DNA from: Octopus vulgaris
Lineage: Eukaryota
Length of the DNA: 64,000 nt
Direction: 5' to 3'
Assembly: GCA_951406725.2 (NCBI GenBank)
Contig: OX597817.1
Location: forward strand, 114,948,001 to 115,012,000
Below are positions 7,305-46,575 of the stretch, one piece after another. Numbering within the stretch: position 1 is the first letter of the stretch; each line of letters opens with the position of its first letter. The notes below the pieces were generated by a model, which made no database searches, had not been told where the DNA came from, and worked only from the letters and a program-made list of their open reading frames with translations. Made by a program: the position numbers and the translations under genes.

Positions 7305-7325
7305 TAACAAAGTGGTGCAGATATC

Positions 7326-7413
7326 AATCCATTACGGCCGTTTCCAACGTCTCCTTTAATTGACTAATGAGAACATTACATCATTGTAAAGAAACGCTTT
7401 CGTCAGATGAATT
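7326..7413 (-). ncRNA. minimal type I hammerhead ribozyme motif
   Basis: Minus strand: helix I aauucau/auggauu, CUGACGA, long helix II (agcguuucuuu...aaaggagacguu), GAAA, palindromic helix III CGGCCG, GUA cleavage triplet. Confidence 0.85.
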
Positions 7414-7838
7414 CATGATCTTCAAACATAAAGGATAGTTCGACTTATTGAACGTATTTAATAAATTCATGGAGTAAGAATATTAACAGTGATCCTGCTA
7501 CAATTTTGTTGGCAGAATGAACTTATCAGAATAGAATATATTTGGTCAGAACAAAAAAGAATTTAGGGGGTTATTAGAGTTTTTAGTAGGAGGAGGAAAT
7601 AATTGACACAAGTGACCAAGTTATCTGAACTTCCAACAATAGAGGAAGGATCGGCTCCAATCGTCTAGATTTCTAAGGAAGATGCTTATGCCCACTGGTC
7701 AGTGGTGAGAGAAGCAACTAATGTCAGATCAGCCGACTAAGTTATTAAGTGATGGTACTATATGTCGGTTTAATTTTCGCAAATGGGTAAGTAGTAGGGT
7801 AGTAATAAGGGAGTGAGTGATAGGGAGGGAATGAGAAT

Positions 7839-7960
7839 GTTATATCGCAATACTACACAGTGGCTGTGTGAGCTACGAAATCCCCATCGCCACTGTTATA
7901 TCGCAATACTACACAGTGGCTGTGTGTGCATCTCATCCTCGTCGCTACTGTTATATCGCA
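7839..7960. repeat. short tandem duplication (gttatatcgcaatactacacagtggctgtgtg x2 plus partial third)
   Basis: Directly visible, ~56-bp period. Confidence 0.8.
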
Positions 7961-9874
7961 CGTTCGGATGCCTCTACTACTCAACTCAACTCTGCTCTTG
8001 ACGTCTAGGCTTCTCTCTCTATATCTACGTATTGGGCTAGCCTACTTCATTCTCTGGGAGCGTCCATACAACAAAGAAGAAAGAAGCTGAATTTATATTC
8101 ATTACTGTATTAAAGGTTTTGAAAAATAATGGAATAAAATTTCAAAATAAAATAGAAAAAAAGGACTGAGGACTATTGTAATTTAGCATAGTTATAATGT
8201 TATAGCATTAAGATAAATTTAGAAATTAGATATATAGGTTAGAAATAAATTATATTTAGAATTATTAGAAGAAAGCGAAGAAACAAATTATTTAAAAAAA
8301 TATATAAAGAAGAGTATTAGATATAGAAATTTAGAATTTAGGCCCACAAGCTAATAAGGAATATAATGCATTTAAAATATAAGGATATAAAGATAAAATA
8401 TACGATGAAGTATGTAAAATATAAACAGTAAAAAGTATATAGTCTTTAAAGAAATATAAAAAGGATATATAAAAAATATGCAAAAGAATATATAAAAATA
8501 TACAGAAAATAAAATATATAACAATATAAAAAGTATAGAAATAAAATATAAAAGAATGCAAAAATATAAGAAAAATATAGAAAATATTTAAAATTCTAAA
8601 AAATATTAAAAAATATAAAGAAATATATAAAAATTATAATGGTATATATATATAAAGAAAAAGAATTATAACAAATACGTTATTTTAAATAAAGAGATAT
8701 ACCAAAATTTAATACAAATAAATCTAAAAGTGAAAAACGGTTTAACAAATGTTTGTAAGATATATTTTAAAGATGTATAAAGCTAAAATCATAATGGACC
8801 TTAGAGGATATATTTTATACTTAGGGGAAGTGTGAAATCCAAAGAAAAAACCCCTGCGAGTAGTAAAGATAAAAACATATCTTATATCAACCATATATGA
8901 AAGGAGTTGATTTAGGAAATGTCTAGATACATATTGTAATAATAGGGTGTAAATTTTCTGGGTTACATTTTAAATTATAAATAATTATTTCCTAGGAGTA
9001 AAGTTATAGAATAATCATTTCAACCTAAAGGTTATATATGGTCAAATTGCGGGAGAGTGACATAAGTATGATTTACTAAAGGAATACTAAATCTAGTTGG
9101 TTACATAAGTATTATTAATGATAACCAGCAATGTGAATGCGAATATGTTAAAAAGAATATTTTAAAATATGGTATTTAAAGAGTGTCAAAATTTATGATG
9201 GGTTATAATGATAAACTATAAAGGAGAGATAAAATTAGGAAAGAAAACAAAAATCAAATTAAGAATTAATAATAAATTAATGAAGTAGTGCTAATTCTAG
9301 TGGGAGGGAGGTTATATTAATTGCTGTATAGAGTTTCAAGGTTTAATCCATGGAGTTATAAACTCAGTATACTATGTAAAGGTAATATAAAAACTATATG
9401 GGGAATAACTATTAAGACATAGGAGTTATAGTGTGTAAGGTATAAACGAATTGGGTGGAGAACAAGTTATCCAGACATCATGGTTAGTTATATAAAGAAA
9501 GAAGATAGCTATACATAAAGGATCAACGGTGTTAAGGGTCAATAGAACACATTACTAAACAGGTTATAATATTACAGAGAGTAAGCTATGAATGATAGCG
9601 CACGGTGAGTAACTTGGGTCATCAAAGAGACAGTAGGAAGTATTATTATTTACTGCTTCTAAAGTATTTAAAGGTACGGGTAATACAATGAAAACATGAT
9701 ACCCTAAGACCTAATAACCCCTAAATTCTTCTGTGTTCTAACTAAATATACACTATTCTGATAACTTCATTCTGCCAACTGGATCGTAGCAGGGTCAATG
9801 TAAATATCTTTACTCCGTAATTTTTGTTAACTATGTTGAATAAGTCGAACTGTCCTTTATGTTTGAAGATCATG

Positions 9875-9963
9875 AATTCATCTGACGCAAACTGTTTCTT
9901 TACAATGATGTAATGTTCTCATTAATCAATTAAAGGAGTCGTTGGAAACGGCCGTAATGGATT
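9875..9963 (+). ncRNA. hammerhead ribozyme motif, core mutated (CUGACGC)
   Basis: Inverted partner of 7326-7413: aattcat CTGACGC ... GAAA CGGCCG TA atggatt. Confidence 0.7.
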
Positions 9964-10492
9964 GACACCTGCGCCTCATTGTTACTCATATTTTATTCAC
10001 CTATCATCGAATCTACGCTTCATAAATATTATAGATAGTATTTTTGATATAAACTACACATCTGAATAGCTAAGATCAGATTTCTTCGCGTAACTAGGTC
10101 TTATTATCTGCATACACTACAAGAATATCATGTGACCGGCACTTATGCATTAAGTTTGATATCTACTTAATAGTGTTGAGTTTGCGTGATACTCAGGCCT
10201 AACAAGTGCTTCAATTTCAGTACTTAATTCAACTGAATCTTAATGATATATATATATATATATATAATTAATCAATATAGGGTGGCAAAAAAAATTTTGT
10301 AGAATTCTTTTGCCACCAGCGGCCTAGTGGGAAAAAATTAAATAGTCATAAACCATTTTTAAGTTCAACATCACAATCAAGGAACGGCCATAATAGGCCA
10401 TTCACCCACTAGAAATAACAGCCAAAAGCTTTAACCGCAAAATAACGTCAATTCCGTAAACCAGGAGAAAATTAAAAAACATTTACCCTGTA

Positions 10493-10599
10493 ATTTCTTA
10501 GACGATGCACCGTTTCATCTACTGTTTAATGGAAAACTAACCTGATTAAATTAAATCAAGCCAATCTACCATAGGCTCTTAGATTCATCAGTAAGAAAT
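10493..10599 (-). ncRNA. type I hammerhead ribozyme (unit A copy 1)
   Basis: Helix I auuucuua/uaagaaau, CUGAUGA, helix II aucua/uagau with long insert, GAAA, helix III CGGUGCAUCG, GUC. Confidence 0.9.
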
Positions 10600-10982
10600 A
10601 GCCAAGCCGGAACAGATATTTTTCACGAGGCATTCTCGTTGCTACCTCGTCAATATCTGACCTAAAATTTTCAAATCGTCGCACTCGCGCCAAATTTATC
10701 GGCAGCAAATAAATATAAGCCGCCGATTCCATTACGGAATTAACCAGAAAATTCATAATTAATCAATATAGGGTGGCAAAAAAATTTTGTAGAATTCTTT
10801 TGCCACCAGCGGCCTAGTGGGAAAAAATTAAATAGTCATAAACCATTTTTAAGTTCAACATCACAATCAAGGAACGGCCATAATAGGCCATTCACCCACT
10901 AGAAATAACAGCCAAAAGCTTTAACCGCAAAATAACGTCAATTCCGTAAACCAGGAGAAAATTAAAAAACATTTACCCTGTA

Positions 10983-11089
10983 ATTTCTTAGACGATGCAT
11001 CGTTTCATCTACTGTTTAATGGAAAACTAACCTGATTAAATTAAATCAAGCCAATCTACCATAGGCCCTTAGATTCATCAGTAAGAAAT
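10983..11089 (-). ncRNA. type I hammerhead ribozyme (unit A copy 2)
   Basis: As copy 1; helix III is the perfect palindrome CGAUGCAUCG. Confidence 0.9.
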
Positions 11090-11424
11090 AGCCAAGCCGG
11101 AACAGATATTTTTCACGAGGCATTCTCGTTGCTACCTCGTTATGGCCGTTCCTTGATTGTGATGTTGAACTTAAAAATGGTTTATGACTATTTAATTTTT
11201 TCCCACTAGGCCGCTGGTGGCAAAAGAATTCTACAAAATTTTTTTTGCCACCCTATATTGATTAATTATGAATTTTCTGGTTAATTCCGTAATGGAATCG
11301 GCGGCTTATATTTATTTGCTGCCGATAAATTTGGCGCGAGTGCGACGATTTGAAAATTTTAGGTCAGATATTGACGAGGTAGCAACGAGAATGCCTCGTG
11401 AAAAATATCTGTTCCGGCTTGGCT

Positions 11425-11531
11425 ATTTCTTACTGATGAATCTAAGGGCCTATGGTAGATTGGCTTGATTTAATTTAATCAGGTTAGTTTTCCATTAAAC
11501 AGTAGATGAAACGGTGCATCGTCTAAGAAAT
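11425..11531 (+). ncRNA. type I hammerhead ribozyme (unit A inverted copy)
   Basis: atttctta CTGATGA atcta ... tagat GAAA cggtgcatcg TC taagaaat; predicted cleavage after C11523. Confidence 0.9.
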
Positions 11532-11649
11532 TACAGGGTAAATGTTTTTTAATTTTCTCCTGGTTTACGGAATTGACGTTATTTTGCGGTTAAAGCTTTT
11601 GGCTGTTATTTCTAGTGGGTGAATGGCCTATTATGGCCGTTCCTTGATT

Positions 11650-11729
<80 letters not shown>

Positions 11730-37920: not shown

Positions 37921-37957
<37 letters not shown>

Positions 37958-38137
37958 ATTATGGCTTAGTAAAATAAATTACTTTGCCACATACTGAACT
38001 TAGTAGAAATAGCAGCCAAAAAAATTTTCTTAGCATTTCTACTACTTAAAGAAAATTTCTCTCAGATAATGTTTACTCTAGACAGCTCACGAAGGTTTGG
38101 GGGTAAATACAGAAAAATATCACAAGTACATAGATCG

Positions 38138-38200
38138 TTTGAGTACGTCAACGTTTCAAGATTAGCCAAATAAAATCAGCATTTCTTTCGTCAGCTCAAA
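38138..38200 (-). ncRNA. type I hammerhead ribozyme (unit B copy 1)
   Basis: uuugag CUGACGA aaga...ucuu GAAA CGUUGACG UA cucaaa. Confidence 0.9.
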
Positions 38201-38699
38201 ATTTCTTAATTTGGATTTGGAAACACTAAAAAGAAGGAACTTTACCTATCAGCGACTTGTCGCTTCAGATGAACTACTCCAACTAACAGTGTCAACAAAT
38301 TCAAAATGCGCAGGCGTAAAATTCTGCACTCCCCATTCCACCCACGTGGTCTATCTAGCAAACATTATATTTTAACCGCGAGAACCGAGGCAGTATGACC
38401 GAGAGATATGAATTATAATATCAACAATTGAGGGTAAAATTAATTAATTAATCAATTTCACCAAGTCTTCAGTATGTAAAAGGACCATTTAAGGCGAATT
38501 CAAAATATTACATTATATAATTAGGGCTTAGTAAAATAAATTACTTTGCCACATACTGAACTTAGTAGAAATAGCAGCCAAAAAAATTTTCTTAGCATTT
38601 CTACTACTTAAAGAAAATTTCTCTCAGATAATGTTTACTCTAGACAGCTCACGAAGGTTTGGGGGTAAATACAGAAAAATATCACAAGTACATAGATCG

Positions 38700-38762
38700 T
38701 TTGAGTACGTCAACGTTTCAAGATTAGCCAAATAAAATCAGCATTTCTTTCGTCAGCTCAAA
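38700..38762 (-). ncRNA. type I hammerhead ribozyme (unit B copy 2)
   Basis: Same motif 562 bp downstream. Confidence 0.9.
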
Positions 38763-39153
38763 ATTTCTTAATTTGGATTTGGAAACACTAAAAAGAAGGA
38801 ACTTTACCTATCAGCGACTTGTCGCTTCAGGTGAACCACTCCAACTAACAGTGTCAACAAATTCAAAATGCGCAGGCGTAAAATTCTGCACTCCCCATTC
38901 CACCCACGTGTTAATCTTACCCTCAATTGTTGATATTATAATTCATATCTCTCGGTCATACTGCCTCGGTTCTCGCGGTTAAAATATAATGTTTGCTAGA
39001 TAGACCACGTGGGTGGAATGGGGAATGCAGAATTTTACGCCTGCGCATTTTGAATTTGTTGACACTGTTAGTTGGAGTGGTTCATCTGAAGCGACAAGTC
39101 GCTGATAGGTAAAGTTCCTTCTTTTTAGTGTTTCCAAATCCAAATTAAGAAAT

Positions 39154-39216
39154 TTTGAGCTGACGAAAGAAATGCTGATTTTATTTGGCTAATCTTGAAA
39201 CGTTGACGTACTCAAA
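39154..39216 (+). ncRNA. type I hammerhead ribozyme (unit B inverted copy)
   Basis: tttgag CTGACGA aagaaatgctgattttatttggctaatctt GAAA cgttgacg TA ctcaaa; predicted cleavage after A39210. Confidence 0.9.
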
Positions 39217-39492
39217 CGATCTATGTACTTGTGATATTTTTCTGTATTTACCCCCAAACCTTCGTGAGCTGTCTAGAGTAAACATTATCTGAGAGAAATT
39301 TTCTTTAAGTAGTAGAAATGCTAAGAAAATTTTTTTGGCTGCTATTTCTACTAAGTTCAGTATGTGGCAAAGTAATTTATTTTACTAAGCCCTAATTATA
39401 TAATGTAATATTTTGAATTCGCCTTAAATGGTCCTTTTACATACTGAACACTTGGTGAAATTGATTAATTAATTAATTTTACCCTCAATTGT

Positions 39493-39551
<59 letters not shown>

Positions 39552-46468: not shown

Positions 46469-46575
46469 GTCAATTTCATGTTGTCTACGCACGTTTCAAT
46501 TTTTACCGTGAGTCATATTTTACAATTAAAATTGTTGTATGAATTTAGGTGAAAATCTCTTCAGGACAAAATTGA
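46469..46575 (-). ncRNA. type I hammerhead ribozyme motif
   Basis: ucaauuuu-guc CUGAAGA gauuuucacc...aaaaauu GAAA CGUGCG UA gac...gaaauugac. Confidence 0.8.

Follow-up and report, generated by a model that had tools for sequence, protein, structure and literature searches.

Layout of the locus

Positions 10264–11654 of the window, by which we mean the whole 64,000-nt stretch of Octopus vulgaris DNA analysed here, consist of two head-to-head arms of a 491-nt unit, 877 and 515 nt long, between (AT)n tracts. Numbering the unit 1–491 along 11164–11654 of the plus strand, we found that the left arm, whose sense strand is the minus strand, reads unit 211–491, then a full unit and then unit 1–106, and that the right arm, on the plus strand, reads unit 468–491 and then a full unit. 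Both 3′ ends face outward into (AT)n. The unit copies at the locus differ by two substitutions and one homopolymer base, and the GC content of the unit is 36%. The features are as follows.

10246–10265, no strand: left (AT)n target tract, read from the sequence
10264–11140, minus: left arm, 877 nt, its outer end being the fixed end B (unit position 106)
10264–10369, minus: 106-nt tail from end A to end B, present only at the outer end of the B arm
10493–10599, minus: type I hammerhead motif 1, cleavage predicted after 10501
10983–11089, minus: type I hammerhead motif 2, with a rare perfectly palindromic helix III, cleavage predicted after 10991
11140, no strand: head-to-head junction of the two 5′-truncated arms, with one base in common
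11140–11654, plus: right arm, 515 nt, its outer end being the fixed end A (unit position 491)
11164–11654, plus: complete 491-nt unit with strong predicted structure (z −6.5)
11425–11531, plus: type I hammerhead motif 3, cleavage predicted after 11523
11425–11432 and 11524–11531, plus: helix I of motif 3
11433–11439, plus: core of motif 3
11440–11444 and 11503–11507, plus: helix II of motif 3
11445–11502, plus: helix II extension, 58 nt, folding as a long G-U-rich arm
11508–11511, plus: GAAA of motif 3
11511–11522, plus: self-complementary helix III of motif 3
11597–11614, plus: 18-nt motif, 40 nt ahead of end A, also present in an otherwise unrelated 562-nt hammerhead repeat family
11653–11723, no strand: right (AT)n target tract, read from the sequence

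The mapping of the arms onto the unit bore out the 491-nt unit, the (TA)n setting and the full and partial units of the original prediction, which had also recognised the inverted unit but had missed the 58-nt insert in helix II, the two fixed ends and the architecture of the insertion. The three hammerheads described there as intact are all complete, with the helix I, CUGAUGA, helix II, GAAA, helix III and GUC named for them, and start at 11425 (+), 11089 (−) and 10599 (−). The cleavage sites predicted in the left arm (10991 and 10501) are 490 nt apart, matching the spacing of about 490 nt that had been proposed. Helix III had been given correctly as CG(A/G)UGCAUCG, although the rarity of the A form (3 of 148 aligned pieces) had gone unnoticed. 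The unit lacks a reverse transcriptase (RT), its longest frame having 68 codons (66 aa from ATG), which agrees with the earlier view of a non-coding unit. The 66-aa frame, at 11268–11468 (+), overlaps the hammerhead; judged by eye, its length is kept in a second subfamily of the repeat despite many amino-acid changes.

Elsewhere in the window, a decayed Penelope-like insertion with inverted ends lies at about 7310–9975, with a long-arm hammerhead-like motif near 9876–9960; its core base at 9888 is unlike most public contigs, and related loci hold Hydra-type fragments. A further hammerhead-like motif, standing alone and with about 55 nt inserted in helix II, lies at about 46480–46570 (minus strand, core at 46564).

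Folding and conservation of the hammerhead motif

By sequence and fold, the motif has the CUGANGA, GAAA and UH core of a type I hammerhead, joined by helices I–III. When the 126-nt motif was folded, helices I and II had pair probabilities of 0.71–1.0, and helix III had at most 0.01 as a monomer, compared with a duplex of −17.5 kcal/mol with a second copy. Helix III stays self-complementary in both subfamilies, as a dimer needs, and the dimer-type helix III of the original prediction is consistent with these values. In the fold of the whole unit, helix I fell to 0.29–0.60 and the lowest-energy fold was without the ribozyme. The unit as such folded with z = −6.5, and 0 of 100 shuffles were as good. 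A short helix II using the nearer UAGAU was tried and rejected (probability 0.00, 10 kcal/mol worse). Infernal with Hammerhead_1 had been suggested as a check, and here the outcome was negative: the Rfam search of the locus gave no hammerhead match at the gathering score, nor at E values up to 10. This miss is probably due to the long arm on helix II.

Among 14 variants chosen out of 47 distinct ones, 99.6% of 532 cells are paired. The subfamilies differ by two double changes, one in the last pair of helix II and one in the centre of helix III, and their cores differ only at the free positions N7 and H17. Because each double change is a single inherited event and the pair-level conservation count was not above shuffles (313 of 500), the conservation of pairing is supportive but is not proof. 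The core was intact in 281 of 282 cases, a count that we set aside as biased, since the loci themselves were picked by core.

Size, age and dispersal of the family

The assembly comprises 2.8 Gb in 227 contigs. A DNA search gave 212 matches from the 40 of 1039 candidates that were scored, the full-length ones being 96–100% identical. A 29-nt core pattern of the window's group had 706 exact matches in the genome and that of the second subfamily, which is about 92% identical, had 817, each count being a lower bound and each control (reversed pattern for the window's group) giving 0; the subfamilies are 7–9% apart. These counts provide the genome-wide copy number that had been named as a check. 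End A followed directly by (AT)n occurs as 452 exact junctions genome-wide, the end of the second subfamily lying outside this count. At least 450 scattered, near-identical insertions of the 491-nt repeat are thus present in the genome. In the window's subfamily, only 82 single-unit variants were found in 55.6 kb, so the copies are young, as had been claimed.

A further subfamily copy (94.5%) lies at L308:350–1560, enclosed by a small fold-back element that has inverted ends of its own. We also considered ADAR editing of the copies and rejected it: sense A>G changes occur at 12 sites versus 16 for T>C and 24 for G>A, and the A>G places in public contigs are mostly genomic subfamily alleles, so they form no editing record. 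When we looked for a promoter of snRNA type, the unit had no significant match to the 130 nt upstream of 6 of the 48 U2 matches (scores of 20–22 versus shuffled means of 21–24, with one 8-nt word in common).

Insertions with one end A and one end B

We compared 105 loci, namely the window, 39 from the DNA search, and 33 and 32 clusters from the first 100 core places of each subfamily; about five clusters were omitted, and all loci were chosen for a full unit or core. The outer ends fall at two points of the unit, end A at 484–491 and end B at 94–112, mostly 103–106. Head-to-head arms with one A and one B were found at 69 of the 105 loci, A with A at one and B with B at none; the others comprised 8 two-armed loci with one unclear end, 25 single-armed loci and 2 of other form. 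One A and one B in 69 of 70 cases corresponds to P ~1e-19. The flank is AT-rich at 100 loci, on both sides at 85. Arms contain up to 5.5 kb of pure units and arrays up to 11 units. Inner ends are spread over the whole unit, and the two arms end no more than 8 nt apart in unit coordinates at 8 of 54 simple loci, versus 3.5% expected (P 5e-4).

The 5′-truncated inverted copy, the one-ended tail of about 106 nt and the AT-rich or (TA)n target are features of Penelope-type insertions. These results indicate that the inverted arm is the standard two-armed layout of such an insertion and not a quirk, and that the pairing of A with B, about 106 nt apart, is the signature of a Penelope-like "tail".

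Copies occur on some 20 contigs, where their flanks differ and their inner break points vary, which argues against both a local satellite and an assembly artefact. Large inverted repeats beside microsatellites are easily mishandled by assemblers, but the contigs of an independent public run hold the 491-nt tandem joint and the opposite-strand joint, as family-level evidence with no record spanning the locus. The outer ends are two different fixed points and not direct terminal repeats; because they differ, they are not terminal inverted repeats either, as a DNA-transposon fold-back would have. We therefore regard a satellite, a fold-back or an artefact as extremely improbable and treat the locus as a Penelope-type insertion.

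Several other repeats with hammerheads were observed. One family copy, at L231:3790–4560, lies outside a microsatellite, with an apparent 14-bp target duplication and with ends shifted from A and B. A second hammerhead repeat family, likewise two-armed in (AT)n, lies at window 37951–39497. Its unit measures about 562 nt, its tail about 92 nt, and three motifs are present. In sequence this family is not related to the 491-nt family apart from the 18-nt motif, which lies about 40–55 nt ahead of the first end; an extended pattern of this motif had 3488 matches in the genome. At L210:1400–7400, and similarly in L211–L216, fold-backs ending in tiny head-to-head pieces of the 562-nt family enclose mirror-image microsatellite filler and repeat at 5.4 kb. 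They may represent re-mobilised read-through that spreads microsatellite DNA. Pairs of motifs spaced by 5.4 kb had been considered as coding elements and proved to be these microsatellite-filled fold-backs. Other hammerhead repeats lie in the flanks at L219:1200–4050, L216:8700–9500 and L227:6200–6330, two having periods of approximately 535 and 353 nt and the third being a single motif.

Probable independence from coding Penelope-like elements

Autonomous Penelope-like elements (PLEs) carry a frame with RT and GIY-YIG, and at the 105 loci no such frame was present in the unit or attached to it. With a Neptune-type query, tblastn found a PLE frame attached to family copies at 0 of the 105 loci; in seven loci its PLE matches, judged by where they lie, are neighbours separate from the copies (L231 and L236 were inspected). 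The RT neighbouring L231 was considered as a partner and rejected, being 1.2 kb away across unrelated DNA. The copies are therefore not all simply the 3′ ends of coding PLEs, the outcome that had been named as fatal to the original prediction.

The copies might still be bare pseudo-LTR (pLTR) ends of an unsampled coding PLE that became tandem after insertion, and not an independent RNA element. PLE insertions are mostly 5′-truncated with the same inverted structure, as described in the available text of PMC8557442, and the PLE families of this genome were sampled only in part. Besides the 0 of 105 loci with an attached frame, this is opposed by the 73 of 173 arms that cross at least two cleavage sites of pure units and by the fact that, in the 100 + 100 core places listed, no two same-strand cores are separated by 2–8 kb. 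We consider it improbable, and the repeat is treated below as an RT-less element in its own right.

Candidate mobilising enzymes

The route to a candidate led from the fossil PLE adjoining the locus, whose relatives are mostly 71–86% identical, to Hydra-type RT fragments and from these to young intact families. In the Hydra-type search, 150 of 6493 candidates were scored, and other Hydra families exist. The young intact families have frames of 842–1090 aa, with DKT and CxCX5C in 4 of 4 and the RW-basic motif in 3 of 4, these diagnostics being taken from the available text of PMC8557442. Pfam does not recognise the Hydra-type proteins, so a GIY-YIG search could not find them. In the 981-aa family the hammerhead core is canonical, helix II is extended by an insert of about 60 nt and helix III is self-complementary. 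The two ends of this family are at distances of about 116 nt and about 234 nt from that core, giving a tail of about 118 nt, and all ten two-armed copies with both ends fetched have one short and one long end. In its long-arm motif, its tail of more than 100 nt and its one short and one long end, the architecture of the 491-nt family matches the Hydra clade.

Neptune-type families are abundant and young and target (AT)n, with intact frames of 753–781 aa containing RT, a CX2-5CxxC linker and GIY-YIG. They have tails of 32–40 nt and minimal hammerheads with helix II inserts of 13–17 nt and mostly U3-A8 cores. Very young Neptune-type families with two frames were observed at L103, L127 and L297 (G000).

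The unit could be aligned with none of the coding families sampled, in 80 + 20 loci and a further 56 from or beside Hydra-type elements. The only strong matches in the 80 + 20 loci are separate retrozyme copies, L072 and L308. The best match in the 56 Hydra-associated loci had E 0.012 over 22 nt, and the local score of the unit against the Hydra pLTR was 35, versus 32 ± 3.7 for shuffled sequence. The available text of PMC8557442 gives the hammerhead of Hydra-1_Obim a short helix II; a long arm therefore does not characterise the Hydra clade as a whole. Two Neptune-type copies, L105 and L107, also have short and long ends, and for this reason the A and B rule alone cannot name the clade.

If a PLE is the mobiliser, it belongs with moderate probability to the Hydra clade. 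That it is instead a Neptune-type (or Naiad) PLE seems unlikely to us. Such elements are very young (in one family, 76 of 76 scored copies are identical at the protein level) and abundant (many intact 781-aa frames, and 1867 matches to the RT motif), and they leave two-ended head-to-head copies in (AT)n; but their 32–40-nt tails and minimal hammerheads contrast with the tail of 106 nt and the canonical motif with a long arm seen here, and the unit shares no sequence with the Neptune-type families sampled. On the Hydra-clade reading, we tentatively propose, for octopus-type genomes, a currently active pairing of Hydra-clade enzymes with several unrelated hammerhead RNA parasites, in which an enzyme dimer might prime on both (TA)n strands, from two starts about 100 nt apart, on circular or multimeric RNA. 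If true, these would be the first animal retrozymes with a named mobiliser, and their insertions would record a coupled two-site priming that has not been seen in vitro.

Proposed mechanism and RNA template

In the explanation that we consider highly probable, the locus is a young insertion of an RT-less repeat with one type I hammerhead per 491-nt unit, that is, an animal retrozyme, which the enzyme of a coding PLE, most likely of the Hydra clade, probably inserted into (AT)n. Tandem units would be transcribed, and neighbouring hammerheads would pair through helix III and then cut; the resulting 490-nt monomer could be closed by a host ligase, by analogy with mussel and axolotl (as described in the available text of PMC7229834). 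A dimer of a Penelope-type protein would nick both (AT)n strands, and reverse transcription would be primed at two internal start sites on the RNA, so that one strand would receive end A and the other end B. The cDNAs could continue past the uncut ribozyme site, on a circle or an uncleaved multimer, for up to 11 units before being joined head to head. A PLE protein has been reported in vitro to cut and extend both strands, with two internal start sites delimiting the tail (available text of PMC11167929).

At least one predicted cut is read through by 155 of the 173 arms and two or more by 73, numbers that are inflated by the selection of loci; the template was therefore circular or uncleaved. 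We then surveyed variants at 74 of the 105 loci, 31 being dropped as more than 2% from the references. Forty variants are present in all units of both arms, as a single circle predicts, though some may be sub-subfamily alleles, whereas 15, in seven loci, are present in only some units. In L057 (G000:C18), L234 and L264 the latter are periodic, with a period of two or four units along single arms. The some-unit variants therefore need oligomeric templates or later duplication, and the variant patterns argue against one monomer circle behind every insertion.

The inner ends fall at the cleavage site (unit 360–362) in 2 of 160 cases. Unit 361–377 holds 12 of 160, versus a mean of 5.7 per 17 nt, but this range was picked afterwards and the hairpin region 39–94 peaks equally. 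Of the public contig runs that carry the unit, none is recorded as RNA and 14 are guessed to be RNA, and contigs cannot show ends or circles. The depth ratio of the unit to a neighbouring repeat in one run guessed to be RNA was comparable in magnitude to that in two runs of unknown kind that are probably DNA, contig depth being a poor measure; a run labelled as another organism, with only three contigs, was set aside.

The same element could instead have been copied from an uncleaved linear multimer read through from arrays, with a weak or irrelevant hammerhead and no circle. The some-unit variants agree with this, as do the private sites at which the arms of L056 differ from each other and the selection-inflated proportion of arms crossing the cleavage site; moreover, in the available text of PMC11167929, unprocessed RNA is the dominant PLE substrate in vitro and hammerhead cleavage is not needed for insertion. 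Of nine Xenopus retrozyme dimers, eight did not cleave and one did (available text of bioRxiv 10.64898/2026.07.22.740005). On the other side are the 40 variants common to all units of both arms, with the same reservation about alleles, the 5.5 kb of pure units that arms can reach, and the preservation of core and pairing across subfamilies 7–9% apart; periodic variants are also what oligomeric circles, or subsequent local duplication, would produce. We consider an uncleaved linear template with a dispensable hammerhead less likely than not.

Comparison with known systems

Complete type I hammerheads stand in consecutive units (two, 490 nt apart, in the left arm), the unit has no coding capacity, no framing LTRs and a GC content below 45–50%, and the copies are dispersed. 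By these testable features the locus is a metazoan non-LTR retrozyme, as the term retrozyme-like had anticipated, and not an autonomous PLE; cleavage and circles would be expected by analogy. In the available text of PMC7229834 and of the preprint bioRxiv 10.64898/2026.07.22.740005, metazoan non-LTR retrozymes are likewise built of tandem, non-coding units that each contain one type I hammerhead, and they also have low GC, a short self-complementary helix III fit for cleavage as a dimer, and dispersed monomers to multimers, with PLEs proposed as mobilisers. The 491-nt unit is longer than the 170–400-nt RNAs of Cervera and de la Pena 2020 (PMC7229834) and lies within the 51–972-bp range of the preprint by Li, Clavereau and Pollet, and its 58-nt helix II arm sets it apart from the retrozymes described in the available text of both. 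RNA and circles were shown for the retrozymes of PMC7229834; for the family here they are predicted. We found no description of insertions into (AT)n whose head-to-head arms end at two fixed points in the available text of PMC7229834 or of the preprint; "inverted" and "microsatellite" have 0 occurrences in the main text of the former. The retrozyme class and the hypothesis of PLE mobilisation are already published. We found no published account of cephalopod retrozymes, the long-arm motif, the 106-nt tail, the A and B rule or the match to Hydra, in a search of mostly open-access literature and of the available text of both retrozyme papers.

The Hydra-clade PLEs described by Craig et al. 2021 (available text of PMC8557442) are alike in (TA)n targeting, a canonical hammerhead, an inverted 5′-truncated copy and a one-ended tail, and the Hydra-type elements of this genome also in the long helix II arm and a tail of more than 100 nt. 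They differ in having an RT/endonuclease frame, which is absent here, and no DNA of the families sampled could be aligned with the unit. The tail of 106 nt compares with 30–40 bp described for PLEs in PMC8557442.

The Poseidon element PAc of Anolis (Frangieh et al. 2024, available text of PMC11167929) is alike in its two internal start sites delimiting the tail, the cutting and extension of both strands, AT-rich targets and start sites away from the ribozyme cut. In vitro, the start sites of PAc are alike on both strands, whereas here the two arms use different sites in 69 of 70 insertions. A coupling is therefore implied that has not been seen in vitro.

With the minimal PLE pseudo-LTR hammerheads of Cervera and de la Pena 2014 (available text of PMC4209133), the motif shares the type I topology and the dimer-type helix III, and the pairs of opposite-strand motifs 100–700 bp apart reported there resemble the layout here. 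It differs from them in its full C3-G8 core, 8-bp helix I and long helix II; the minimal and U3-A8 forms of PMC4209133 match the Neptune-type elements of this genome.

Mobilisation of animal retrozymes by PLEs is so far a proposal drawn from co-occurrence and pLTR similarity; the family bears on it and on the way in which inverted, one-tailed PLE insertions arise. It offers hundreds of nearly unmutated insertions and a countable rule of one A and one B, in a genome where two clades also supply intact candidate enzymes, and the insertions of each clade predict a different tail. Ordinary as a member of its class, the family is useful as a test system for the identity of the mobiliser and for coupled priming.
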